Positions 2,714 to 44,751 of a stretch of DNA of 64,000 nucleotides are shown one piece after another; position 1 is the first letter of the stretch, and every line of letters starts with the position of its first letter. A model generated the notes under the pieces. It saw nothing but the letters and a program-made list of their open reading frames with translations, was not told where the DNA came from and did no database searches. Source of the stretch: Pseudomonadota bacterium (GTDB lineage: Bacteria; Pseudomonadota; Gammaproteobacteria; Burkholderiales; Burkholderiaceae_D); NCBI GenBank assembly GCA_040385645.1, contig JAZKGZ010000016.1, forward strand, positions 36,935 through 100,934. Reading direction: 5' to 3'. A program made the position numbers and the translations under genes.

Positions 2714-4342
2714 TTACTCGTCCCTGGCACCATCGATGCCTAATTCTTGGATTTTGCGGGTGATGGTATTGCGCCCGATACCAAGTCTGATCGCTGCATC
2801 GTTTTTGCGCCCGTGGGTATGGCGTAGTGCGGTTTTAATTAAGGTGGATTCGAAAATTTTGCCGAGCGCGTCCATGACTTCAGGCCGGCCCGACGCCAGC
2901 ATCTGCGCCGCCTCCGCCTCCAGCATGACGATCCAGTTCGATTTTTCGCCGTTGGGCATAGTCGGCGCGGTCAGCCCAACGCCATCCATACTGCCCACAC
3001 CGGCCATGCCGTTTGCAGGGCTGGTTCCGTTCGTGCCGCTGCCATATCGCATCGGCGTCGCGCCCGAGAGCGCGGTTGCCACCGGCATACCGGATGAAAT
3101 ATTTGTTACCGGGCTCATAGCTTGCGTAGCGGGCCCGTGGCCGATCTGCGCGAAACTGCTTCCGTCGATCAGGTCTTGCGGCAAATCCTTGATTTCCACC
3201 GTCTGACCCGGTGCCATGACGGTGATCCAATTGCAGAGATTTTCCAGCTGGCGCACGTTACCCGGCAAATCCAGCCCCGAGAGAAATTGCATCGCTGCGT
3301 CGGACATGCGTTTGACGTCGGCACCGAGTTGCCTGGCGCTTTGCGCGAGAAAGTGCCGGGTGAGAATCGGAATATCTTCGCGCCGCTCGCGCAGGCTCGG
3401 CAAACGCAACCGGATGACATTCAAGCGGTGGTACAAATCTTCTCTGAACAAGCCTTCACGTACCCGATGTTCAAGGTTTTGGTGGGTCGCAGCGATTACC
3501 CTGACATTTGCCTTCAGCGGCTGATGGCCGCCGACACGATAGAAATGGCCGTCCGACAGCACCCGCAACAAGCGGGTTTGTAAATCGAACGGCATGTCGC
3601 CGATTTCATCGAGAAATAGTGTGCCACCCTCGGCCTGCTCGAAACGCCCGCGCCGTGTCGCCTGGGCACCGGTAAATGCACCGCGCTCATGACCGAACAG
3701 CTCGGACTCCAACAAATCTTTGGGAATAGCAGCGGTATTGAGCGCAATGAACGGCTGCGCTGCCCGAGGGCTGTGCTTGTGCAGCGCTTGCGCCACCAGC
3801 TCCTTGCCAGTGCCGGATTCACCGGTAATAAGCACCGTGACATTCGATTGCGACAACCGGCCGATGGCACGGAACACATCCTGCATGGCCGGTGCCTGAC
3901 CCAATATTTCAGGTGCTTGTGCCAGGATTTGCTCGACACTCGCTTCGCGCAGGCTTTCCTCGAGCGCGCGCCGGATCAAAGCAACCGCTTTATCGACATC
4001 GAAAGGCTTGGCCAGGTATTCGAAGGCACCGCCTTGAAAAGAAGCCACTGCGGAATCGAGATCGGAAAACGCTGTGATGATAATGACCGGCAATCCAGGA
4101 TGCTGCGCCTTGACGGCCTGCAACAGCACCAGCCCGGATTCGCCGGGCATCCGGATGTCCGATACCAGCACTTGCGGCGTACCGGTTTTCAGCGCTTCCA
4201 TGGCATCCCGCGCATTTGAAAAACTTCGCGTGGCAAGGTTCTCGCGGGCCAGAGCTTTTTCCAATACCCAGCGAATCGATTCGTCGTCGTCAACAATCCA
4301 GATCGGCTTCATGTTCTTCGAGTTCTCCGCGCCTGTCGGCAA
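2714..4342 (-). CDS. ntrC: Nitrogen regulation response regulator NtrC (NR-I), a sigma-54 enhancer-binding protein
   Basis: 542-aa ORF. It has a receiver domain ([21 protein letters not shown]), a sigma-54 AAA+ core ([23 protein letters not shown]) and a C-terminal Fis-type HTH. It lies directly downstream of ntrB in the glnA cluster. Confidence 0.9.
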
Positions 4343-4365
4343 TGTTTATTACACGATCCTGCAAT

Positions 4366-5427
4366 TCAAGGTAACGGGATCAGGATTCTGAAATCCGTGC
4401 ATCCCGGCACGCTTTCACATTCGATTACGCCCTGATGCTGCTGCACGAATGTCTGCGCCAGTGTCAGCCCTAGACCACTACCACCGTCACGTCCCGATAC
4501 CAGCGGATAAAAAATGCGGTCCTGTATTTCTATTGGAATACCCGGCCCGTTATCGACGATATGCAAGTCTAGTGCCAGCCTGTAACGCACTTTGGCCAAG
4601 GTTACTTGCCGCGCCACCCGCGTGCGCATGACGAGCCGCGCATCGTTCGTTTCACGGCGCGCCGACAATGCTTGGGCGGCGTTATGCGTGATATTCAGTA
4701 CGGCCTGGATCAACTGCTCTTGATCGCCGCGAAATTCCGGTACCGAGAGATCGTAATCGCGCACCATCGTCAAGCCATGCGGAAACTCCGCCATGATCAG
4801 GCTACGCACCCGTTCGCACACCTCGTGAATATTGACATCGCCGACGATGTGGGGGCGTCGGTGCGGTGCCAGCAGCCGATCGACCAGAGTCTGCAACCGA
4901 TCGGCCTCTTTGATGATCACCTGGGTGTATTCGCGTAACTCCTTGACATGCCGTTCCGGCAACTCCAGTTCCAGCAATTGCGCCGCACCACGGATGCCCC
5001 CCAACGGATTCTTGATTTCATGCGCCAGATTGCGCAGCAACTCCTTGTTCGCCTGGCTTTGATCCAGCAACCGCTCTTCACGGTCGAGCTTGAGTTGCTG
5101 GACGTTTTCCCGAAGCTCCACCAGCACCGGCGTTGCCGGGTCGTCCAGCGCGGTAACGACGACATGTACGTGTAGCGCATCGCGCCCAACGCGTTCCAAT
5201 CGCAAATCCTGGCGTTTGTCGTCGAATTTATGTGCGCAGGCTTGCAGAAAATCTGCATCCAGGGCTTCGGTGTTGAGAAACAGATCGGCGAGCTTTTGCC
5301 CGCATAGCGCCCGCGCACCGGTTTCGAAAAGGTTTTCCGCAGCGGCATTCGCGTAGACGATCGAGCCTTGCCGATCGAGAATGAGCACTGCCGAAGCCAG
5401 CAGTTCGAGACCATCGCGTGAAGTCAT
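4366..5427 (-). CDS. ntrB: Nitrogen regulation sensor histidine kinase NtrB (NR-II)
   Basis: It has a PAS-like N-terminus (AVLILDRQGSIVYANAAAENLF), an H-box (LAHEIKNPLGGIRGAAQLL) and an HATPase region (DNGPGIP, GSGLGL). I prefer the internal ATG at 5427 (MTSRDGLELL). The extra N-terminus of the track ORF (start 5478) is hydrophobic junk-like. Confidence 0.85.
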   Translation of the reverse strand: MTSRDGLELLASAVLILDRQGSIVYANAAAENLFETGARALCGQKLADLFLNTEALDADFLQACAHKFDDKRQDLRLERVGRDALHVHVVVTALDDPATPVLVELRENVQQLKLDREERLLDQSQANKELLRNLAHEIKNPLGGIRGAAQLLELELPERHVKELREYTQVIIKEADRLQTLVDRLLAPHRRPHIVGDVNIHEVCERVRSLIMAEFPHGLTMVRDYDLSVPEFRGDQEQLIQAVLNITHNAAQALSARRETNDARLVMRTRVARQVTLAKVRYRLALDLHIVDNGPGIPIEIQDRIFYPLVSGRDGGSGLGLTLAQTFVQQHQGVIECESVPGCTDFRILIPLP

Positions 5428-5493
5428 GAGAATGTAGTTGGAGAAAAAATAAAAGGACAGGTAATCGATCAGGGCCATGGCAGGAAACGGCGC

Positions 5494-5524
5494 AATAAAA
5501 ACAAAGGCCGCATCAGCGACCTTT
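5494..5524 (-). terminator. Rho-independent terminator downstream of the DUF4124-like gene
   Basis: The minus-strand sequence reads AAAGGTCGC-TGAT-GCGGCCTTT followed by GTTTTTATT. Confidence 0.55.
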
Positions 5525-5560
5525 ATTATGTGTTGCGCAGAAAACCTGCGTTATATATGC

Positions 5561-6076
5561 CTATTTAAGATTACCAATTTCCCGCTTCAATGCATCGATA
5601 TTCTTTTCAGTTCGGCCTAGTTCGTCTTTCATCCCGGCTACACGATCCTGATATTTTGCATAGTTACGCTCGTCGCCGCGGCGTTCAGGCTCGCCATTGT
5701 TGAATTCACGCCTTAATGTAGATAGTTTCTGCTCTTCGTTACGCATTTCATCGAGCAATATCTGACGGCGATCGTTGTCGCGCGATTTTTGCGTGTTGCT
5801 ATCGACTTTAGGAAAATCCGCAGGCGAACTTACCGAACTGGCTGGACGTACATTCGTCGTAGTAACGGCAGATGCCGGTTTGCGCGGCAAGCCGGGAATC
5901 GTCGTGATGCCTGGCAGATCGATGCGCTTGCAACCTTTGGTAGTGCCGGTGTTTTTGTATTCCTTGCCGCCTCGGCCATCGTCGCATAGGAAAATTTCGC
6001 TTTGCGCGAATGCCTGGGGCGATACCAGCCCCAGAATCGATGACAGCAGCAATAATGCAGAGAGTTGGCGCTTCAT
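5561..6076 (-). CDS. Secreted DUF4124-like protein with a charged coiled-coil-like C-terminus
   Basis: The internal start gives MKRQLSALLLLSSILGLVSPQAFAQ (signal peptide) followed by IFLCDDGRGGKEYKNTG. In my recollection this family commonly sits between glnA and ntrB in Burkholderiales. The longer track ORF (to 6259) would run through the glnA terminator. Confidence 0.6.
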   Translation of the reverse strand: MKRQLSALLLLSSILGLVSPQAFAQSEIFLCDDGRGGKEYKNTGTTKGCKRIDLPGITTIPGLPRKPASAVTTTNVRPASSVSSPADFPKVDSNTQKSRDNDRRQILLDEMRNEEQKLSTLRREFNNGEPERRGDERNYAKYQDRVAGMKDELGRTEKNIDALKREIGNLK

Positions 6077-8623: not shown

Positions 8624-10318
8624 TTAGGAAAGCCGGACAGCATGTTCCCGGGTAGCATGAAACGTCACTTGCGGCCAACGCTCCTGGGTCAACTTCAGGT
8701 TGACACCTGAACTAGCCAGATATGCCATATTGCCTGCTGCGTCATGGGCAATATTAAAACCTGCCGAAGATTTTTCGAATTCGGCTAGAATTTTTTTGTC
8801 ATCGCAGGAAATCCAGCGAGCGCTGCTGATGCTGGTGCCATCGAAAGCCGCATCGACGCCGTACTCGTTGAGCAAGCGGCTGGCAACCACTTCGAACTGC
8901 AGGACACCCACCGCACCGAGTACCAATTCACCGCTATTGACAGGCTTGAAAACCTGCACTGCGCCCTCCTCGCCCAATTGCTGCAAGCCCTTATGCAATT
9001 GCTTGATCTTTAAAGGGTTGCGAATACGGACGGACCGAAAAAAGTCGGGGGCAAAATACGGAATGCCGGTAAATTGCAGCAACTCACCTTCTGAAAAGCT
9101 GTCGCCGATCTGCATGTTGCCGTGGTTCGGCAAACCGATGATGTCGCCGGCGTAGGCCTCTTCTACCTGCTCGCGACTGGCGGCCATGAAAGTAACGACG
9201 CTGGAAACTTTGATGTCGCGCCCAAGGCGCAAATGCTTGATTTTCATGCCGCGCTCGAAGCGGCCGGAGCATACCCGTAGAAATGCGATGCGATCCCGAT
9301 GCGCTGGGTCCATGTTGGCCTGGATTTTGAACACGAAACCGGAAAACGGTGTTTCGCTGGGCTGCACCGCGCGGATCGTGGCATCGCGCTCGCGCGGCGG
9401 TTGCGCCCAATCGAGCAAGGCATTCAAAATCTCCCGCACGCCGAAGTTGTTGATGGCAGAACCGAAAAATACCGGCGTCTGTACGCCACTGAGAAATGCA
9501 TCGAGATCGAACGGGTGGGAAGCGCCGTGCACCAGCTCGACTTCCATTTTCAATTGCTCTATTTCAAGCGGAAACATCTCCACTAAACGCGGATTGTCGA
9601 TACCCTTGATGACCTCGAACGTTTGATCGGCTTTCTCGCTACCGGCGGCAAACAGCATGATCTCGTCGTTGAGCAGGTGATATACCCCGCGGAAGGATTT
9701 ACCCATGCCGATCGGCCAGGTAACCGGCGCGCACTGTATAGCCAATACCGATTCGAGCTCGTCTAGCAACTCCAGCGGATCGCGGGTTTCCCGATCCATC
9801 TTATTCATGAAGGTGATGATAGGCGTATTGCGCATGCGGCAGACGTTCAATAGTTTGATCGTCTGTGCCTCGACGCCCTTGGCAGCGTCGATGACCATTA
9901 AGGCCGAGTCGACAGCGGTGAGCACACGATAGGTATCTTCGGAAAAATCCTGGTGACCGGGGGTATCCAGCAGATTCACGACATGATCGCGGTATTCGAA
10001 CTGCATCACCGAACTCGCTACCGAAATGCCGCGCTGTTTCTCGATTTCCATCCAGTCGGAGGTGGCGTGACGACCGCTCTTGCGTGCCTTGACGGTGCCG
10101 GCGAGTTGAATGGCGCCGGAAAAAAGCAGCAGTTTTTCAGTCAGCGTGGTTTTGCCGGCATCTGGGTGGGAGATGATGCCGAAAGTTCGACGCCGCGCGA
10201 CTTCCCGAGCGATCTGCTCCGCAGGTACGTTGCGTGTGACCGGCTCGTCTACAAGGTTTGTCGGTATTGGTTGTGGAGCTAAATGTTCTTGTTCGGGACG
10301 ATCGGTGATGCTGGCCAT
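8624..10318 (-). CDS. prfC: Peptide chain release factor 3
   Basis: [31 protein letters not shown], and the NKMD motif (FMNKMDRE). Confidence 0.93.
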
Positions 10319-38495: not shown

Positions 38496-38650
38496 TCCAC
38501 GGTCATTGGAAAAGTCGCAGATCCACTGTCAACACCGAATTTTAAGAAAGATTTCGGGAAGTAACTAAGTTGTTCGCGGGATGCATATTGATCGCGAACA
38601 ACTACTCCTAACATGGGGTCTCACGAATCCTCCCGGAAGTGAGTTCAACC

Positions 38651-39334
38651 ATGAAACTGTCTCTCCCAAGTTTAACCAACTGCTTTGAAAGCGCGCCCAA
38701 GCCGTTTGATGAAATGAAGCTGAGTAAAGCTGAAGTCAAACAAAAAGTGGCGGAACTGAAAACCAACGGATTTTTCAGTATTCCCATCTCTGAAACGACT
38801 CAAAGATATCTTCACAATACAAACCAAGGCAAAGGCAATTCGGAAAGTCAGTGGGAGGCTAAATCGACTGGGACAGAATTAAAGCTGCCTAAGTCCTATA
38901 ACGAGATTGCCACGCGCATGGCAACGGCAGTGATATCCAAAGTGGCGGATCAGAAAGTTCATCTCGAGACGCAGGAATTTCAAATTCGGCGGCCTGGACT
39001 CACTCCCGCCGACAGATGGCATCAGGATAGAAACCCCAAGGTACTTACCTGCCTAGCTACCCTCGAGGGCCGTGGCACGGAATATGTCACACCAGCGCTA
39101 GCGAGAGCAACATTCAAGCATATCGATGACAAGATCACACCGATCGAAATGCGTAAGGGTCGCATACTGTGCAAGGAAGACATCAAAACCTTCAAAAAAG
39201 ACAATTTTTACTTTATCGCCTCACGCTCAGACGTCACCGAATCAATACCAAAATTAGTGCACAGAGCGCCGGCATATGACCATAAAGAGCTAAGCGAACG
39301 GGCGATATTTTTGTCACGTTGGCGGCCAGTTTAA
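38651..39334 (+). CDS. Hypothetical protein with an HxD...H cupin-like motif, possibly DUF1826-like
   Basis: ADRWHQDRNPKVLTCLATLEGRGTEYV and KLVHRAP...RAIFLSRW. The assignment is tentative and from memory of the family signature. Confidence 0.45.
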   Translation: MKLSLPSLTNCFESAPKPFDEMKLSKAEVKQKVAELKTNGFFSIPISETTQRYLHNTNQGKGNSESQWEAKSTGTELKLPKSYNEIATRMATAVISKVADQKVHLETQEFQIRRPGLTPADRWHQDRNPKVLTCLATLEGRGTEYVTPALARATFKHIDDKITPIEMRKGRILCKEDIKTFKKDNFYFIASRSDVTESIPKLVHRAPAYDHKELSERAIFLSRWRPV

Positions 39335-39558: not shown

Positions 39559-39882
39559 ATGATCGAAATCTTTCGGTACGTACATGAAAATGGGCAAGAG
39601 CCTTTTACAAAATGGCTTTCAAGTCTTCGTGACAATGTTGCGCAAGCCAGAATTCGCGTTCGGATACGCCAAATCGAGTCAGGTAATTTTGGTGATTGTG
39701 AAGTAATAGGAGAAGGGGTATCGGAACTGCGAGTGCATGTCGGCGCAGGATATAGAATTTATTTCGGGCGGCATGGCAAAGCGGTCGTACTTTTGTTGAT
39801 GGGTGGTGACAAACGTACGCAACAGGCTGATATTAAACAAGCAAAGAAATGCTGGGCTGAGTGGAAACGGAGCCAGAAATGA
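39559..39882 (+). CDS. Type II toxin, RelE/ParE superfamily (addiction module killer type)
   Basis: FTKWLSSLRD..ARIRVRIRQIESGNFGD.EVIGEGVSELRVHVGAGYRIYF....VVLLLMGGDKRTQQADI. Confidence 0.85.
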   Translation: MIEIFRYVHENGQEPFTKWLSSLRDNVAQARIRVRIRQIESGNFGDCEVIGEGVSELRVHVGAGYRIYFGRHGKAVVLLLMGGDKRTQQADIKQAKKCWAEWKRSQK

Positions 39883-40208
39883 CGAAACTCAAGAATATGG
39901 TGTCGCACCACGAACAAGAAATTGCCGAATTGCAGGCCGACAAAGATATGGCGGTGGAGTATTTGAAAGCTGCCATGGAATCGTTAGACGACCCAAATAA
40001 CCGAGCCGGTGGTCTATTGGCCTTGCGCACGATTGCTGAAGCTTACGGCGGTTTGGCAGTCGTTGCTGCCGAGGCTGGCATTAGTAGAGAATCGCTGTAT
40101 CGGGCTCTATCAGCAAAGGGAAATCCGACTTTGAAAACGTTACTAGCGGTTTTGAAAACAGTTGGCATGCGCTTATCGGTAGAGGCAGAACTGCCGGTGA
40201 CTGCTTAG
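39879..40208 (+). CDS. Cognate antitoxin (addiction module antidote, HTH)
   Basis: ATGA overlap with the toxin gene. YLKAAME...LLALRTIAEAYGGLAVVAAEAGISRESLYRALSAKGNPTLKTLLAVL. Confidence 0.85.
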   Translation: MTKLKNMVSHHEQEIAELQADKDMAVEYLKAAMESLDDPNNRAGGLLALRTIAEAYGGLAVVAAEAGISRESLYRALSAKGNPTLKTLLAVLKTVGMRLSVEAELPVTA

Positions 40209-40518: not shown

Positions 40519-40830
40519 TTAAACCGCTTCTAATTCCACATGCACACGTTGCCCCATCATTGTCGCAATGTTTACCAAAGCATCGAGAGAAAATCTTGAT
40601 ATGCGCCCTCTTAACAAATCGTTTATGCGAGGCTGGGTTACGCCGCACCGCTTCGCCGCTTCTGCTTGTGTCCATTCGGTTGTTCTGACAATGGCAATAA
40701 TTTTCCGCATCAATTCAGCACGGGTTTGCATGTTGGCTGCCTGCTCTGGCGTATCAGCAATGGCATCCCATACGTTGTCATAGGTTTCTGTATTGCTCAC
40801 GATTTGGCTTTCGTTATTTGCAATAGTCAA
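40519..40830 (-). CDS. XRE-family HTH antitoxin-like protein
   Basis: VWDAIADTPEQAANMQTRAELMRKI...WTQAEAAKRCGVTQPRINDLLRGRISRFSLDAL. Confidence 0.75.
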   Translation of the reverse strand: MTIANNESQIVSNTETYDNVWDAIADTPEQAANMQTRAELMRKIIAIVRTTEWTQAEAAKRCGVTQPRINDLLRGRISRFSLDALVNIATMMGQRVHVELEAV

Positions 40831-41041
40831 GTTTCAGCGATCTCTAAATCTTGCTTCGATGTCGTTTGCGTTTTTTTGGAAAACGCACTTGCCAATCGAA
40901 CGTAACGGTTTTTTGTTGTTTCCTGGCGAGACCGTAGGCCAATCGTCCCAGGAAAGCCTTATACAAACAGGACAATCACTGCGCGATTTTCTTCGAAGCC
41001 TTGGAAAATTTGTCCGTTGACACTTTTCCGTGGATTGACAT
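40831..41041 (-). pseudogene. Degraded RelE/HigB-superfamily toxin gene upstream of the XRE antitoxin
   Basis: One frame gives MSIHGKVSTDKFSKASKKIAQ*. A shifted frame continues SDCPVC...KCVFQKNANDIEARFRDR*. These match the N-terminal (K.FSK.A.K.GI) and C-terminal (FAKNE.ANI..EL..FR) signatures of the toxin family usually paired with this antitoxin type. The gene is interrupted by a stop and frameshifts and is much shortened. Confidence 0.4.
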
Positions 41042-41042
41042 G

Positions 41043-41978
41043 CTAACTTGCGTATGGACCGCGTCCGATCGTCGCCTCAATTCGAACCTGTAGCGCTTGC
41101 CGAAAGTCGTTTATCTTAGTCTCGTTCCAAGTTGTGAACCGGTACTGACGGTTGTCAAAATGGACTTCTTTTAATTCATCTTCTTTGACAGTCCAGATTA
41201 CCGGTCGTCCAAGGCCAAGGGCAAACCCGGCTTCAAAGTAAACTCCGCCACGGTGGCCTGTGAAATCGGCGATGACAAATCGGGAGCGCCGAATATTCGC
41301 CAAAATTTCATCATCAATTTTATTGTTGTGCTCGACATTGTCGATTCGGATCGGTTTGTACCCCGCACCTCTTATCGCAGGCTCTATCGCATCAACCCAT
41401 AGAAACGTTATTTCGCTCGAAAACCACATCGCGCAAAAACCTGAATCGAGTTCGGTGCCGCCTTTCGATCTTTCGTCCAGATGGTTATGCCCATCGGGAG
41501 TGATCACCACACCAAGGCCGCTATTGGTGCTGTTATCTTCGAGCCATTTCTTGCTCTTGGCTAAATATTCCCGGGCTAGATACCAAATTTCACCGAAGTT
41601 TGCGGACCAAGTCAACGCTTGGACTCGCCGGCCCTCGTCTGAATCTTCCTTTAAATTAAACTGCGCTGCGACTCCTGGTGATGCGTCCACGATGATACGC
41701 AGCAGTCTTTCGGCCCGCTCTCCGACGCTTGGTGGTTTTGCGGTGCGGATGCTGAGTACATCGTCAGATCCTACAAGCATTTCTTGGTTTTCTCGCATCC
41801 ATCCACGAGCGTTCGCTAAATCTCTTCCAAGAACAATTGGGTGGCTTATAAACATCTGCTCAGCAGTCCCGACAATCCTGTATTTCCCGCAAAATGCGCA
41901 ATTTATCTCTGAAAGGTCTCCGGCACTGAAGCCGGTTTTAATGTCATAACGACAGACTGGACAGGTGCTTTTTGCCAT
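41043..41978 (-). CDS. Zn-ribbon protein with a C-terminal nucleoside 2-deoxyribosyltransferase-like (NDT/TIR-like fold) domain
   Basis: N-terminal CPVC-x17-CAFC. The C-terminal domain reads FCAMWFSSE...IEPAIRGAGYKPIRID....IDDEILANIRRSRFVIADFTGHRGGVYFEAGFALGLGRPVIW. This matches the hallmark D-x-T/G...V-x-x-E-x-G-x-A-x-x-x-G-K/R-P-V of the NDT superfamily. Strong GAGGAG SD. Confidence 0.65.
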   Translation of the reverse strand: MAKSTCPVCRYDIKTGFSAGDLSEINCAFCGKYRIVGTAEQMFISHPIVLGRDLANARGWMRENQEMLVGSDDVLSIRTAKPPSVGERAERLLRIIVDASPGVAAQFNLKEDSDEGRRVQALTWSANFGEIWYLAREYLAKSKKWLEDNSTNSGLGVVITPDGHNHLDERSKGGTELDSGFCAMWFSSEITFLWVDAIEPAIRGAGYKPIRIDNVEHNNKIDDEILANIRRSRFVIADFTGHRGGVYFEAGFALGLGRPVIWTVKEDELKEVHFDNRQYRFTTWNETKINDFRQALQVRIEATIGRGPYAS

Positions 41979-42072
41979 ACAACTCCTCGTTGCAGTTAAA
42001 CGTCAAACTGACAGTATATGGAGAATGTTGCCGGCGGCGTTTTCCAGATCATCCGAATGGCCTCGCAGCTCC

Positions 42073-42083
42073 GGGGGGGGGGG
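42073..42083. repeat. Homopolymeric G11 tract (C11 on the minus strand)
   Basis: Read directly: ccGGGGGGGGGGGaaatc. It lies about 95-105 nt upstream of the ATG of the minus-strand gene 41043-41978. Confidence 0.95.
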
Positions 42084-42225: not shown

Positions 42226-42315
42226 ATTAGCCAACATCGGCTACAGAGTGACCGCGCTCGGTCACTTGATTGATTGCTTCTACTTTAAATTCCGGTGAAT
42301 ATCTTGGGGAGCTCA
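42226..42315 (-). mobile_element. N-terminal remnant of an IS3-family transposase OrfA
   Basis: AGGAGG SD followed by MSSPRYSPEFKVEAINQVTERGHSVADVG*. This is the typical IS3/IS911 OrfA N-terminus, truncated after 29 codons. Confidence 0.55.
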
Positions 42316-42483
42316 TCGACTTCCTCCTATGGCTAAATCGTAGGGCAGGATTGTCTACCTGAGTGGGGAAAGTCCACTCATGGCATAGTTGCGGTTTTAC
42401 TGCTTCATTCTTTACTCGCGATCACCTAGCCTCACCGCCTACTGCCGGGCAATGCATATCTAATTTTAAATTTTGGATTAACA

Positions 42484-43350
42484 TTGAAAAAAATACGTTT
42501 CCACTACTTTACAATCACCAAGACCGGGACACCGAAAACGCTTGCAGACGTGTTCGCAACGTTAGCCGCGGCAGATATTGGTACAAAAGTAAAAGAATGC
42601 AATTACTCTAAAATTGCACTGGATCACATTGAGCAGATCGGCCCGTTGCCTAGTCCGATATGGGTGATGCGGTTTTCGCGATTGCGGGAAGATAACTGGC
42701 CTGGCGTAACGACGTTAAATGATGTTTCAAAGGATCTTGACCTTGATCAAGATTCCTTCTTGTCCGAAGATACTTATGTTCTTTTCGACACGGAGCAAAA
42801 TAAAGTTGTTGTTCAATATAACCACATCGGTGTTCGGCCAGGAAAAATACAGGAGTACCTCTCTCAATGGGTTGACTTCTCTTCAGGCGGTTATCGTTTG
42901 TTGCCAGTGTTCACAAATGACACTATGGCTAAGTATAAAGCGAAGCAAATCGTAACTTCGGTCGAAGTTGCAATCGACGGAATAACTCCAGAGGACCTTA
43001 CGTATTTCAACGGCGGTGGGCTCATGGCGGCTGTGAGTGGTGCCGTCAATTCAGATGCAGTGAAGATGAAAGTAGTATTTTCGGTTGACGCACGTATTAA
43101 AACCACCCGTTTAAAGCGAAGTTTCGTAACTGATTTGGTGGAAAAAGTAATGGGCCGCGGCGGTGAAGATGACAAAATAATCGTCCACGCTAAAGAAGAA
43201 GAGTCTGATGCTGTCGAGTTGTTAAACTTACTGGAGTCCAGAAAGTGCGTTGAATATGATGGCGATAGTGTCCCTCGCACTTCTGGTCGCCGTCTTGATC
43301 CAGACACAATGTTTCAGATGCTTAGGCAGGCATACAGGGAATGGGTTTGA
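42484..43350 (+). CDS. Hypothetical soluble protein (288 aa), family unknown
   Basis: A long ORF in AT-rich DNA with a TTG start. No catalytic or binding motif recognised. Its stop overlaps the next gene's start. Confidence 0.6.
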   Translation: MKKIRFHYFTITKTGTPKTLADVFATLAAADIGTKVKECNYSKIALDHIEQIGPLPSPIWVMRFSRLREDNWPGVTTLNDVSKDLDLDQDSFLSEDTYVLFDTEQNKVVVQYNHIGVRPGKIQEYLSQWVDFSSGGYRLLPVFTNDTMAKYKAKQIVTSVEVAIDGITPEDLTYFNGGGLMAAVSGAVNSDAVKMKVVFSVDARIKTTRLKRSFVTDLVEKVMGRGGEDDKIIVHAKEEESDAVELLNLLESRKCVEYDGDSVPRTSGRRLDPDTMFQMLRQAYREWV

Positions 43351-43811
43351 TTGCATTAAATAGATTTTGGGAACGAAGGTATCCAACGCTTATTAGCGTT
43401 GCCGTGGCAGCCATTGCCTGGTATTTCGGACTTAGGTTTGATGTTTCTCGAATATCAAATCAGCTGTCGTCAACGATCAACATTTCAGCTATTTTGATGG
43501 GGTTCACTGGCACTGCAAATGCGATGCTTTTATCATTTAATTCGAAAAAATTTCTGGCAATACGTGCAAATAAGAATCTTTGGTACCTCCTTTTGACATA
43601 CTTTCGGTCGTCGCTATGGGCCGCAATGTTTGTTTGTTTCTACTCTCTTTTGCTGTTTTCGATCGATATTACAAAAATTCCCCTGAGTATTAATTATGGC
43701 GCGCAGGTAGAGCCATTTCTGATGCCTGTTTGGATAGGCAGCGTCGTCTTTGCCCTTTTGAGTTTCTTCCGACTTTTACGCGCGGTATTCGGGATATTGA
43801 AGGCCGAATAG
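43341..43811 (+). CDS. Small four-TM membrane protein (156 aa), family unknown
   Basis: Four hydrophobic helices: TLISVAVAAIAWYFGL, INISAILMGFTGTANAMLLSF, LWAAMFVCFYSLLLFSI and FLMPVWIGSVVFALLSFF. 10-nt overlap (ATGGGTTTGA) with the upstream ORF. Confidence 0.6.
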   Translation: MGLIALNRFWERRYPTLISVAVAAIAWYFGLRFDVSRISNQLSSTINISAILMGFTGTANAMLLSFNSKKFLAIRANKNLWYLLLTYFRSSLWAAMFVCFYSLLLFSIDITKIPLSINYGAQVEPFLMPVWIGSVVFALLSFFRLLRAVFGILKAE

Positions 43812-44209: not shown

Positions 44210-44491
44210 TCAAACGTAAACTGTTTTGATATTATTTTTAATCATCTCGCCAATGCTCGCCACGCAGTTACCGTTACGCGCTCTGTTAGCGTAGAGCCGC
44301 AGGTAATATTTTATGCCGACCCCATTGCTAGGCGTCGTCGCAATAGATTTCATTCCCTCAGCCGAGATTTGATAGTCGCCGCAATCCGGTTTTGAGCATC
44401 TAAACAGCTGGTTGCTATGGGATATAAATTCTTGAAACGTTTTAGATTTGCTACACAGAAAGCAATTTTCTGTATTACCTGTGTTAGTCAT
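44210..44491 (-). CDS. Small Zn-ribbon protein (93 aa)
   Basis: GGAGTG SD. CFLC-x18-CSKPDCGDYQISAEGM resembles the N-terminal Zn-ribbon of 41043-41978 (CPVC-x17-CAFCGKYRIVGTAEQM). Confidence 0.55.
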   Translation of the reverse strand: MTNTGNTENCFLCSKSKTFQEFISHSNQLFRCSKPDCGDYQISAEGMKSIATTPSNGVGIKYYLRLYANRARNGNCVASIGEMIKNNIKTVYV

Positions 44492-44660: not shown

Positions 44661-44751
44661 TGGCGGAGAGACGGGGATTCGAACCCCGGATAGGCTATGA
44701 ACCTATACACGCTTTCCAGGCGTGCGACTTCAACCACTCATCCATCTCTCC
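44661..44751 (-). tRNA. tRNA-Ser (anticodon GGA)
   Basis: The 91-nt minus-strand sequence is GGAGAGATGGATGAGTGGTTGAAGTCGCACGCCTGGAAAGCGTGTATAGGTTCATAGCCTATCCGGGGTTCGAATCCCCGTCTCTCCGCCA. It folds with a 7-bp acceptor stem, anticodon stem CACGC/GCGTG, loop CTGGAAA, a long variable arm, a GGTTCGAATCC T-loop and an encoded CCA. Confidence 0.95.

Follow-up and report, generated by a model that had tools for sequence, protein, structure and literature searches.

The 64,000-nt window analysed here, the whole stretch taken from contig JAZKGZ010000016.1 of a Pseudomonadota bacterium, carries on its minus strand a gene for a 311-amino-acid (aa) protein in which a zinc ribbon, a helical region, a putative winged-helix-like part and a linker helix (together the N-module, residues 1-177) precede a predicted enzyme domain of the nucleoside 2-deoxyribosyltransferase (NDT) superfamily. 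The gene is a member of a large uncharacterised family found in many phyla, and we infer, with a confidence a little above even, that it is a self-contained, horizontally mobile, single-protein sensor-effector of phage defence or abortive infection. Counted in favour of this reading are the fold and catalytic residue of the C-terminal domain, the asymmetry in conservation between the N- and C-terminal parts, the modularity of the N-module, the mobility of the gene, its local island and the existence of precedents. The parts of the gene are as follows, with the basis of each assignment in brackets.

41043..41978, minus strand: whole open reading frame (ORF) of 311 aa, with zinc ribbon, helical region, winged-helix-like domain and NDT-like domain (ORF listing and translation)
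41983..41987, minus strand: Shine-Dalgarno sequence AGGAG, 4 nt 5' of the focal ATG (direct sequence reading)
41871..41978, minus strand: zinc ribbon, residues 1-36, with C6, C9, C27 and C30 (cysteine conservation and model)
41733..41870, minus strand: helical region, residues 37-82, with a conserved GW[IML]RE[NH] motif containing W60 (alignment and model)
41499..41732, minus strand: putative winged-helix-like domain, residues 83-160 (weak Foldseek matches and model)
41448..41498, minus strand: linker helix between N-module and enzyme domain, residues 161-177 (both models)
41061..41447, minus strand: NDT/DNPH1-like (DrHyd-superfamily) Rossmannoid domain, residues 178-306 (PF05014, Foldseek and broadened profile)
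41232..41234, minus strand: codon of Glu249, the predicted catalytic nucleophile or acid (invariance and alignment)

The preliminary description of this DNA had placed a 311-aa ORF at 41043-41978 without giving a strand; it lies there on the minus strand and starts with ATG. The ORF is a genuine conserved gene and no chance reading frame, since an identical protein (P0001, from a Pseudomonadota metagenome-assembled genome) is present in public data and 3,922 clusters at 90% identity match it at E ≤ 1e-3 in a search of 5.8 billion clustered proteins. The best 120 of these 3,922 clusters are 43-59% identical to the focal protein, and all but five of them cover at least 94% of the query, those five being shorter proteins of 220-307 aa. 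An alignment of 48 homologues (A1) was used to build an AlphaFold2 model of the full protein, with a mean predicted local distance difference test score (pLDDT) of 90.5 and a predicted TM-score (pTM) of 0.65; the N-terminal 174 residues, modelled separately, reached a pLDDT of 94.4 and a pTM of 0.87.

Sequence profiles and structural models assign the C-terminal domain to the NDT ('DrHyd') superfamily, with an intact catalytic-type site, and make it TIR-like in fold class only. The domain is modelled as a five-stranded α/β fold spanning residues 178-306 and contains the motifs GFCAMWF, RID..EHNNKIDDEI, ADFTGHRGGVYFEAGFALGLGRPVIW, HFDNRQY and RIEATIGRG. Residues invariant in the 48 homologues comprise GFCAMWF, R211, D213, H217, N219, D222, E224 and D238-F-T, followed by R243, G245-V, F248-E249, G251, H273-F-D275, R277-Q-Y and R299-I-x-A. 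The core that the preliminary description had singled out for its hallmark acidic residue, FVIADFTGHRGGVYFEAGFALGLGRPVIW, lies at residues 234-262, and that residue, Glu249, is indeed unchanged throughout the alignment and also in eight of eight divergent plasmid and phage relatives, which keep D213, I221, D238, E249, G251 and D275. PF05014 (Nuc_deoxyrib_tr) is the sole Pfam match of the focal protein (E = 2.5e-5; 24.8 bits, under the gathering score of 28.8). It is matched by 48 of 48 homologues at E ≤ 0.01, and its gathering score is passed by two relatives, a full-length homologue from B. mycoides (33.9 bits) and a domain relative from Hymenobacter (29.3 bits).

Structural comparison of the domain with the PDB using Foldseek returned NDT-type enzymes with target-normalised TM-scores (TMt) of 0.59-0.73 overall, among them NDT 8qc0 (E = 1e-3), DNPH1 (TMt 0.65-0.72) and the CMP N-glycosidase BcmB (TMt 0.73), whilst the matches to TIR domains (SPARTA TIR-APAZ, SARM1, RPP1 and RUN1) were weaker, at E = 6e-3 to 1e-2. 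The best structural match in BFVD is a siphovirus protein annotated as 'CMP/hydroxymethyl CMP hydrolase' (E = 7e-6; root-mean-square deviation 2.4 Å). A sequence search of the PDB with the focal protein alone gave no match, and the matches obtained there with a full-length family profile (GINS Psf1 and eL43) were set aside as noise (E ≥ 0.18). A profile broadened by the plasmid and phage relatives (A3) matched the PDB entries 2a0k, 2klh and 4fyh at E = 2e-5 to 6e-5, the value being 2.2e-5 for the NDT of T. brucei and 2.3e-5 to 6e-5 for Rcl/DNPH1, and TIR structures appeared in the same search at E = 0.26-0.7. The resulting alignments place Glu249 on the catalytic Glu of both Rcl/DNPH1 (GVGYELG motif) and the T. 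brucei NDT (GTAFEVG motif), D238 on the Asp of the NDT 'IADLS' motif, and the IDDEI segment on the 'IHEQD' segment of DNPH1.

No TIR-family Pfam entry (PF13676, PF01582, PF08937, PF10137 or PF13271) was matched by the focal protein at E ≤ 10, and TIR_2 was matched by one of the 48 homologues (E = 0.008). The domain had earlier been described both as a member of the NDT superfamily and as 'TIR-like': the first is upheld by the PF05014 match, the structural matches to NDT and DNPH1 and the placing of its Glu on the catalytic Glu, whilst the second stands for the fold class, as seen with Foldseek, but not for the sequence family, which is that of NDT/DNPH1 (about 2e-5, against 0.26-0.7 for TIR).

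Mammalian DNPH1 has a glycine-rich 5'-phosphate-binding loop, GSIRGG, after strand 1. The segment after strand 1 in the focal domain is instead the invariant GFCAMWF followed by S or D, with no glycine-rich DNPH1 phosphate loop, and the Rcl alignments obtained with profile A3 begin only after strand 1. With this loop absent, the domain is no DNPH1 orthologue. Cleavage of an N-glycosidic bond is the activity that sequence and model would predict for it, although the sequence does not reveal its substrate. The domain is further matched by PDLC00733, a PADLOC model of an effector of cyclic-oligonucleotide-based antiphage signalling systems (CBASS), at E = 1.3e-14.

The N-module opens with the zinc ribbon, modelled as three short β-hairpin strands. 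Its four cysteines sit where the preliminary description had them (C6, C9, C27 and C30) and are conserved across the 48 homologues, C9, C27, C30 and G31 being invariant and C6 at least 90% conserved; sporadic matches to zinc-ribbon Pfam families (Lar_restr_allev, Zn_Ribbon_TF and Zn_ribbon_3) occur among the homologues. Residues 37-82 form three modelled helices (37-45, 52-63 and 71-78; pLDDT > 93), and residues 83-160 a helix-strand-helix-helix-hairpin unit with conserved PSVxERAxKLL, SWS, E130, Y133 and L134 and a wing ...VVITPDG. Foldseek returned no significant structural match for the N-module model, and its weak matches (E 0.14-0.5) are winged-helix proteins, namely F93 of Sulfolobus turreted icosahedral virus (STIV), eS10, MarR, TubR and PadR. 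The middle of the protein had been described as ending in a winged-helix-like GVVITPDGHNHL; that motif is present and corresponds in the AlphaFold model to a β-hairpin wing and the beginning of the following helix, but the Foldseek values (E ≥ 0.14) make 'winged-helix-like' a plausible but weakly supported label for the modelled residues 83-160. The median net charge of this region across homologues is -3.5, and its conserved residues are aromatic, hydrophobic or acidic. Because the winged-helix-like part is acidic, a classical DNA-binding role is disfavoured, and this part is no obvious DNA binder.

A linker helix, spanning residues 160-170 in one model and 161-173 in the other, leads into the enzyme domain, with pLDDT falling to 72 at residues 171-180. 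In all-against-all comparisons the four N-terminal segments show 33-38% identity, against 69.5% for the enzyme domain; the N-module evolves much faster than the strongly constrained domain that follows it.

Searched against 1.84 billion proteins, a profile of the N-module recovered (E ≤ 1e-3) 2,356 representatives of clusters at 50% identity, and the best 150 of these are nearly all of canonical length, around 300-340 aa. Other C-termini also occur behind the module. One 586-aa protein (P0172) combines it (residues 5-201, E = 1e-31 to the profile) with a genuine TIR_2 domain (PF13676; 45 bits, E = 1.8e-11), a pairing that suggests equivalent roles for the TIR_2 and NDT-like domains. What P0172 shares with its 119 other listed homologues (TIR-STAND/TPR proteins and similar) is the TIR domain and never the N-module, and the N-module-TIR fusion is therefore rare. 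A 459-aa protein (P0222), present on two independent contigs, carries the N-module and a helical region without assignment, and P0265 another C-terminal domain of about 140 aa, likewise without assignment; a HEPN identity for the latter (residues about 155-297) was considered, as RSYRNLVH recalls the Rx6H pattern, and was dropped in view of no Pfam or PDB sequence match. Several further matches were rejected as variants. P0198 is a frameshifted canonical copy. Four matches of about 180 aa (P0123, P0133, P0163 and P0202) end at or just past the conserved G-F with which the enzyme domain begins and were therefore taken as partial genes.

Relatives of the focal protein were sought with two peptide patterns in one genome per species from 185,579 species, which yielded at least 253 relatives, a lower bound because the scan was limited to these two patterns. 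They are spread patchily over at least 10 phyla, including Alpha-, Beta-, Gamma- and Deltaproteobacteria, Verrucomicrobiota, Acidobacteria and Nitrospirota, as well as Ignavibacteriales, Neomarinimicrobiota, Eisenbacteria, Hydrogenedentota and others. The GC content of the focal gene is more than 3 points under that of its ±8 kb flanks in 53 of 62 loci (median -7.9) and never more than 3 points above. GC at third codon positions (GC3) has a median 15.5 points under that of the neighbouring ORFs, and is the lowest of its locus in 35 of 63 cases and among the two lowest in 45 of 63. These deficits mean that the gene is foreign nearly everywhere, even between core genes (folB-[gene]-xerD), and the family gene is horizontally mobile.

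Neighbourhoods were compared in 81 sequences (80 loci and the window), the focal gene being recovered in 72, by all-against-all clustering of all ORFs. No partner gene is conserved across the 72 loci. The recurrent neighbours are lineage-specific housekeeping genes: gshA upstream at four loci (with apbE downstream in two of these), a class II aminoacyl-tRNA synthetase (aaRS) upstream at four, folB upstream together with an integrase-family (XerC/XerD-like) gene one to two genes downstream at four, and malate synthase G at five to six. Bro-N adjoins the gene at three loci, an integrase, a resolvase and HVO_A0114 at two each, and HTH_37 at one locus and in the window. Placements range from the core (rpoD-dnaG-tsaD-plsY-folB-[gene]-xerD-ogt-rplS) to a toxin-antitoxin (TA)-rich mini-island at locus L093 (polA-[gene]-DUF2281-HicAB). 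Neighbours of nucleotide salvage or nucleotide metabolism were found at none of the 72 loci, which together with the foreign composition bears out the earlier claim that this is no ordinary salvage NDT. The accompanying expectation of a mainly mobile or defence setting for homologues was not borne out, the gene standing alone amid housekeeping genes at most loci; because such a context is not the rule, the argument for a role in conflict rests on foreign composition, patchy spread and domain swapping, and not on statistics of defence islands. A tRNA lies within about 8 kb in 21 of 60 loci, to which we attach little weight because many loci are syntenic and hence not independent.

Four Verrucomicrobiota-type loci (L008, L011, L016 and L031) have the family gene close behind a lysS-like class II aaRS gene, and the 405-aa public call P0158, rejected as an architectural variant, runs from lysS into the family gene and so fuses the two. 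In other lineages the family gene overlaps folB or gshA by 1-14 nt. Expression of the cassette may depend on read-through from, or coupling to, a housekeeping gene. The L093 mini-island downstream of polA, on a JGI contig encoding the homologue P0036, also contains a 35-aa FolB fragment at 9550-9657, and in Methylophilaceae-type genomes the family gene directly follows an intact folB; the fragment may be the footprint of a donor context carried along in transfer.

Plasmids carry full-length copies too: megaplasmids of B. mycoides, where an integrase and ArpU lie alongside the gene, and plasmids of Bradyrhizobium, Leptospira and Hydrogenimonas. Other relatives adjoin a NACHT protein on a Hymenobacter plasmid and a MAP3K_TRAF_bd/TPR-S protein, with a TIR protein nearby, on an Aliarcobacter plasmid. 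Shorter proteins with the enzyme domain are encoded in the early region of temperate phages of Staphylococcus, Streptococcus and Latilactobacillus, on the strand opposite to the early genes; they belong to PHROG families of unknown function and match PDLC00733 too. This match, the NACHT and TPR-S neighbours on plasmids and the opposite-strand phage copies point to effector use of the domain clade and count towards a defence role for the focal protein. In Streptococcus phage SM1 (L084), gp14, gp11 and gp7 (219-226 aa; 2834-3511, 3911-4570 and 5152-5832) run against the direction of the early genes, and gp11 has the NDT-like domain. Firmicute-phage 'TIR' genes have been described adjoining SLATT genes (PMC9503650), and these may be the same loci.

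Within the window the focal gene is chromosomal and outside any prophage. The GC content around it falls to 0.43-0.50, from 0.57-0.61 in the flanks, over a stretch that extends from about 38.1 kb to 44.66 kb and ends at the 3' end of a tRNA-Ser(GGA), position 44661. The setting had been described as a tRNA island littered with TA genes and insertion sequences (IS), and the low GC, the tRNA edge, the TA genes and an IS3 remnant agree with that, although no direct repeat derived from the tRNA-Ser was found at the far end of the island. Rfam matches in the window are confined to two tRNAs. The other features of the island are these.

38639-39334, plus strand: 231-aa ORF at the low-GC edge, with no significant family match (DUF1826, E = 0.033) and an internal 18-nt direct repeat at 38744 and 38939
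39559-40208, plus strand: Gp49/HigB-like toxin (107 aa) paired with a dnstrm_HI1420 antidote (115 aa)
40519-40830, minus strand: HTH_37 (HigA-like) gene downstream of the focal gene, with no toxin gene beside it; the 212-nt gap between the two holds only a 43-aa ORF at 40844-40975
42073..42083, minus strand: C11 homopolymer, about 95 nt upstream of the focal start codon (homopolymer count)
42227..42316, minus strand: 29-aa N-terminal remnant of an IS3-family OrfA, MSSPRYSPEFKVEAINQVTERGHSVADVG and stop, between the DUF6731 and focal genes (weak PF01527 HTH_Tnp_1 match)
42484-43350, plus strand: DUF6731 gene (288 aa, Pfam E = 2e-23), upstream of the focal gene and divergent from it
43341-43811, plus strand: predicted membrane protein of 156 aa with several hydrophobic segments and no Pfam match, overlapping the DUF6731 gene by 10 nt
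44210-44491, minus strand: 93-aa Cys-rich ORF adjoining the tRNA-Ser, in which CxxC...C-x4-CGDYQIS recalls the focal CxxC...CxxCGKYRIV

The DUF6731 protein has a match to PDC-M67A (E = 4e-7), a candidate defence model of PADLOC, and with the 156-aa membrane protein it looks like a separate two-gene candidate system; DUF6731 was mentioned in no paper that our literature search found. The likeness of the 93-aa Cys-rich ORF to the focal zinc ribbon is marginal (hhalign probability 18%) and the ORF was not retained as a relative. The C11 tract is the sole C or G run of at least 10 nt in the window, where 0.04 would be expected, and an independent Logan assembly covering this locus has the tract at the same length; it might be a phase-variable promoter spacer, or functionless.

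As a sensor-effector, the protein would work as follows. The N-module would hold the enzyme inactive until it is triggered by an infection cue, for instance a phage protein; the acidity of the winged helix makes DNA a less likely trigger. Like NDTs, TIRs and the NDT-like effector of Retron-Eco1, the protein would probably be activated through oligomerisation, and the active enzyme would then cleave the N-glycosidic bond of an abundant metabolite, either nicotinamide adenine dinucleotide (NAD+) or a (deoxy)nucleotide, whose depletion would stop phage replication at a cost to host growth. A bolder form of this proposal, which we put forward tentatively and hold to be rather less probable than the defence role itself, is that the zinc-ribbon/winged-helix module is a new portable infection sensor that directly recognises a phage component and switches on interchangeable toxic outputs, usually NDT-like and occasionally TIR or others. 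The family, comprising about 2,350 clusters at 50% identity, would then represent a new and widespread kind of single-gene anti-phage defence, inserted as a lone cassette even in core regions, and its NDT-like domain would possibly act on a substrate unlike the NAD+ of TIRs or the deoxynucleoside monophosphates (dNMPs) of DNPH1.

Several observations weigh against a defence role. The immediate neighbours at the 72 loci are mostly housekeeping genes and defence genes are not enriched; in three lineages the focal gene abuts or overlaps an upstream folB, gshA or class II aaRS gene, which fits ordinary physiology too. The TIR fusion comes from a single 50%-identity cluster representative (P0172), the N-module being absent in its 119 listed homologues. 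PADLOC holds no single-gene system model for the focal protein, the match being to one domain of a CBASS effector. The 'sensor' label for the N-module derives from its position and evolutionary rate, because there is no significant structural match, and the arrangement of the domains relative to each other in the full model is uncertain (pTM 0.65). The present results do not discriminate among the candidate substrates, and the defence role is reached by reasoning from the evidence above.

The best surviving alternative, which we nevertheless consider unlikely, is a non-suicidal hydrolase of the DNPH1/MilB/BcmB kind acting on a non-canonical or phage-specific (d)NMP, such as 5-hydroxymethyl-dUMP or -dCMP, in sanitation or in non-abortive anti-phage activity, with the N-module serving for regulation or oligomerisation. 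Its nearest sequence relatives of known function are indeed Rcl/DNPH1 and NDT (E = 2e-5 to 6e-5), the viral structure that matches it best carries the annotation CMP/hydroxymethyl-CMP hydrolase, BcmB aligns at TMt 0.73, and many loci lie amid housekeeping genes, tightly coupled to folB, gshA or aaRS. However, neighbours of nucleotide metabolism are absent at the 72 loci, the gene is compositionally foreign as well as rare and patchy (at least 253 relatives in the 185,579 species genomes), the DNPH1 loop GSIRGG is replaced by GFCAMWF, and the occurrence of a TIR in place of the C-terminal domain on the same N-module points to a slot for a toxic effector.

Somewhat less probable again is a selfish addiction or TA-like element with no dedicated defence role, in which the NDT-like domain would act as the toxin, curbed by its own N-module or by a neighbouring helix-turn-helix antitoxin (HTH_37, 212 nt downstream). 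TA-rich mini-islands in the window and at L093, together with plasmid copies, would fit such a toxin, as would the small winged helix-turn-helix (HVO_A0114) or Bro-N genes that abut the gene at five loci and the HTH_37 gene itself, which lies downstream on the same strand in the window and directly upstream at L060. Yet HTH_37 is adjacent at only two of the 72 loci, no other small partner is conserved, and at L060 the HTH_37 gene already has a small-toxin-like ORF of its own upstream.

We regard as improbable a nucleotide-sensing regulator in which the zinc ribbon and winged helix bind DNA and the NDT-like domain is a non-catalytic ligand sensor, as are some SLOG, TIR and DrHyd domains. The winged-helix-like fold would suit it, and non-catalytic sensor forms of this domain class have been described (PMC9503650), but even distant relatives keep the catalytic-type Glu and three Asp without exception, the acidic winged helix (median net charge -3.5) has no conserved basic recognition helix, no conserved target operon adjoins the gene, and the N-module is paired with a TIR elsewhere. 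Least probable of all is a counter-defence enzyme of mobile elements that destroys immune signals (cyclic ADP-ribose isomers or other ADP-ribose or cyclic-nucleotide signals): domain relatives do occur on temperate phages and plasmids, but the phage copies lie opposite to the early genes, the usual layout of lysogeny-expressed genes of benefit to the host, and the window gene is chromosomal and not in a prophage, its family matching an effector model and not an anti-defence model.

If the protein does act as a sensor-effector of phage defence, it would represent a compact, partner-free immune protein of 311 aa that unites a new sensor module with an NDT-type effector and has thousands of family members. 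With the Retron-Eco1 effector as the first, it would give immune effectors of the NDT fold a second, independent example, and would offer a tractable system in which to study both infection sensing by a small zinc-ribbon/winged-helix module and the metabolite destroyed by an NDT-type effector. As the cassette stands alone among core genes and is yet strongly foreign, statistics based on defence islands would miss the family. Should sanitation of the nucleotide pool be its function instead, the protein would be a bacterial, regulated counterpart of DNPH1.

Among known systems, the enzymes closest to the C-terminal domain are NDT, DNPH1 (Rcl) and MilB/BcmB (PF05014, clan Nribosyltransf, the DrHyd of Burroughs and Aravind), which share its Rossmannoid fold and give significant profile matches. 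The pattern [VI]-A-D-x-T...G-V-x-x-E-x-G-x-A-x-x-x-G-x-P-V is common to NDT/DNPH1 and the focal protein, with Glu249 on the catalytic Glu. In contrast, these small enzymes are without the 177-residue zinc-ribbon/winged-helix N-module, and the focal family has invariant motifs of its own (GFCAMWF, EHNN[KR]IDDEI and HFDNRQY), lacks both the DNPH1 phosphate loop and a salvage setting, and is mobile, with a foreign base composition. TIR effectors (TIR_2, TIR-STAND/NLR-like and SPARTA TIR-APAZ) belong to the same fold class, with Foldseek E of about 6e-3 to SPARTA, SARM1 and RPP1, but differ in sequence family. With HTH_37 adjoining the gene at only two of the 72 loci, and on opposite sides, there is no conserved toxin-antitoxin pair.

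PDLC00733, a CBASS effector labelled 'TIR', is homologous to the C-terminal domain over the C-terminal 110 positions of the model, its N-terminal 255 being unmatched, and no CD-NTase (cGAS/DncV-like nucleotidyltransferase) or other CBASS gene lies beside the focal gene or is conserved at the 72 loci. DrHyd domains have been predicted to act as NADase effectors in conflict systems (PMC9503650). The NDT-like effector of Retron-Eco1 (Ec86) has a catalytic Glu and is a toxic defence effector that is inactive until triggered and forms a dimer or filament (bioRxiv 10.1101/2023.08.16.553469; PMC13276650); it is reported to deplete NAD+ or adenine nucleotides (bioRxiv 10.1101/2023.08.16.553469; Carabias 2024, as given in PMC13276650). 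It differs from the focal protein in carrying its NDT-like domain in the N-lobe, where that of the focal protein is C-terminal, and in needing a reverse transcriptase and multicopy single-stranded DNA (msDNA). No reverse transcriptase gene was found among the neighbours in the window and, by Rfam, no non-coding RNA besides the two tRNAs, so the locus is not of retron type; nor did the focal protein or its profiles match retron structures in sequence.

A parallel in design is Swarozyc, a single protein that combines a DUF4062 TIR-like NADase with an auxiliary sensing domain and shows a patchy distribution resembling that of horizontal gene transfer (bioRxiv 10.64898/2026.05.01.722283). Both place a catalytic domain of the TIR/NDT superfamily and a putative sensing domain on one polypeptide, and both are patchily spread; in the focal protein, however, the putative sensor module is N-terminal (the order is reversed) and of a different kind, with no match to DUF4062 (PF13271) at E ≤ 10, and its activity is a prediction from sequence and model, whereas the NADase activity of Swarozyc has been shown. 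Our literature search found no description of a zinc-ribbon/winged-helix-NDT architecture. The sensor-effector concept itself is established, and what the focal family adds to it is an effector domain known at the superfamily level, set on a new putative sensor module.

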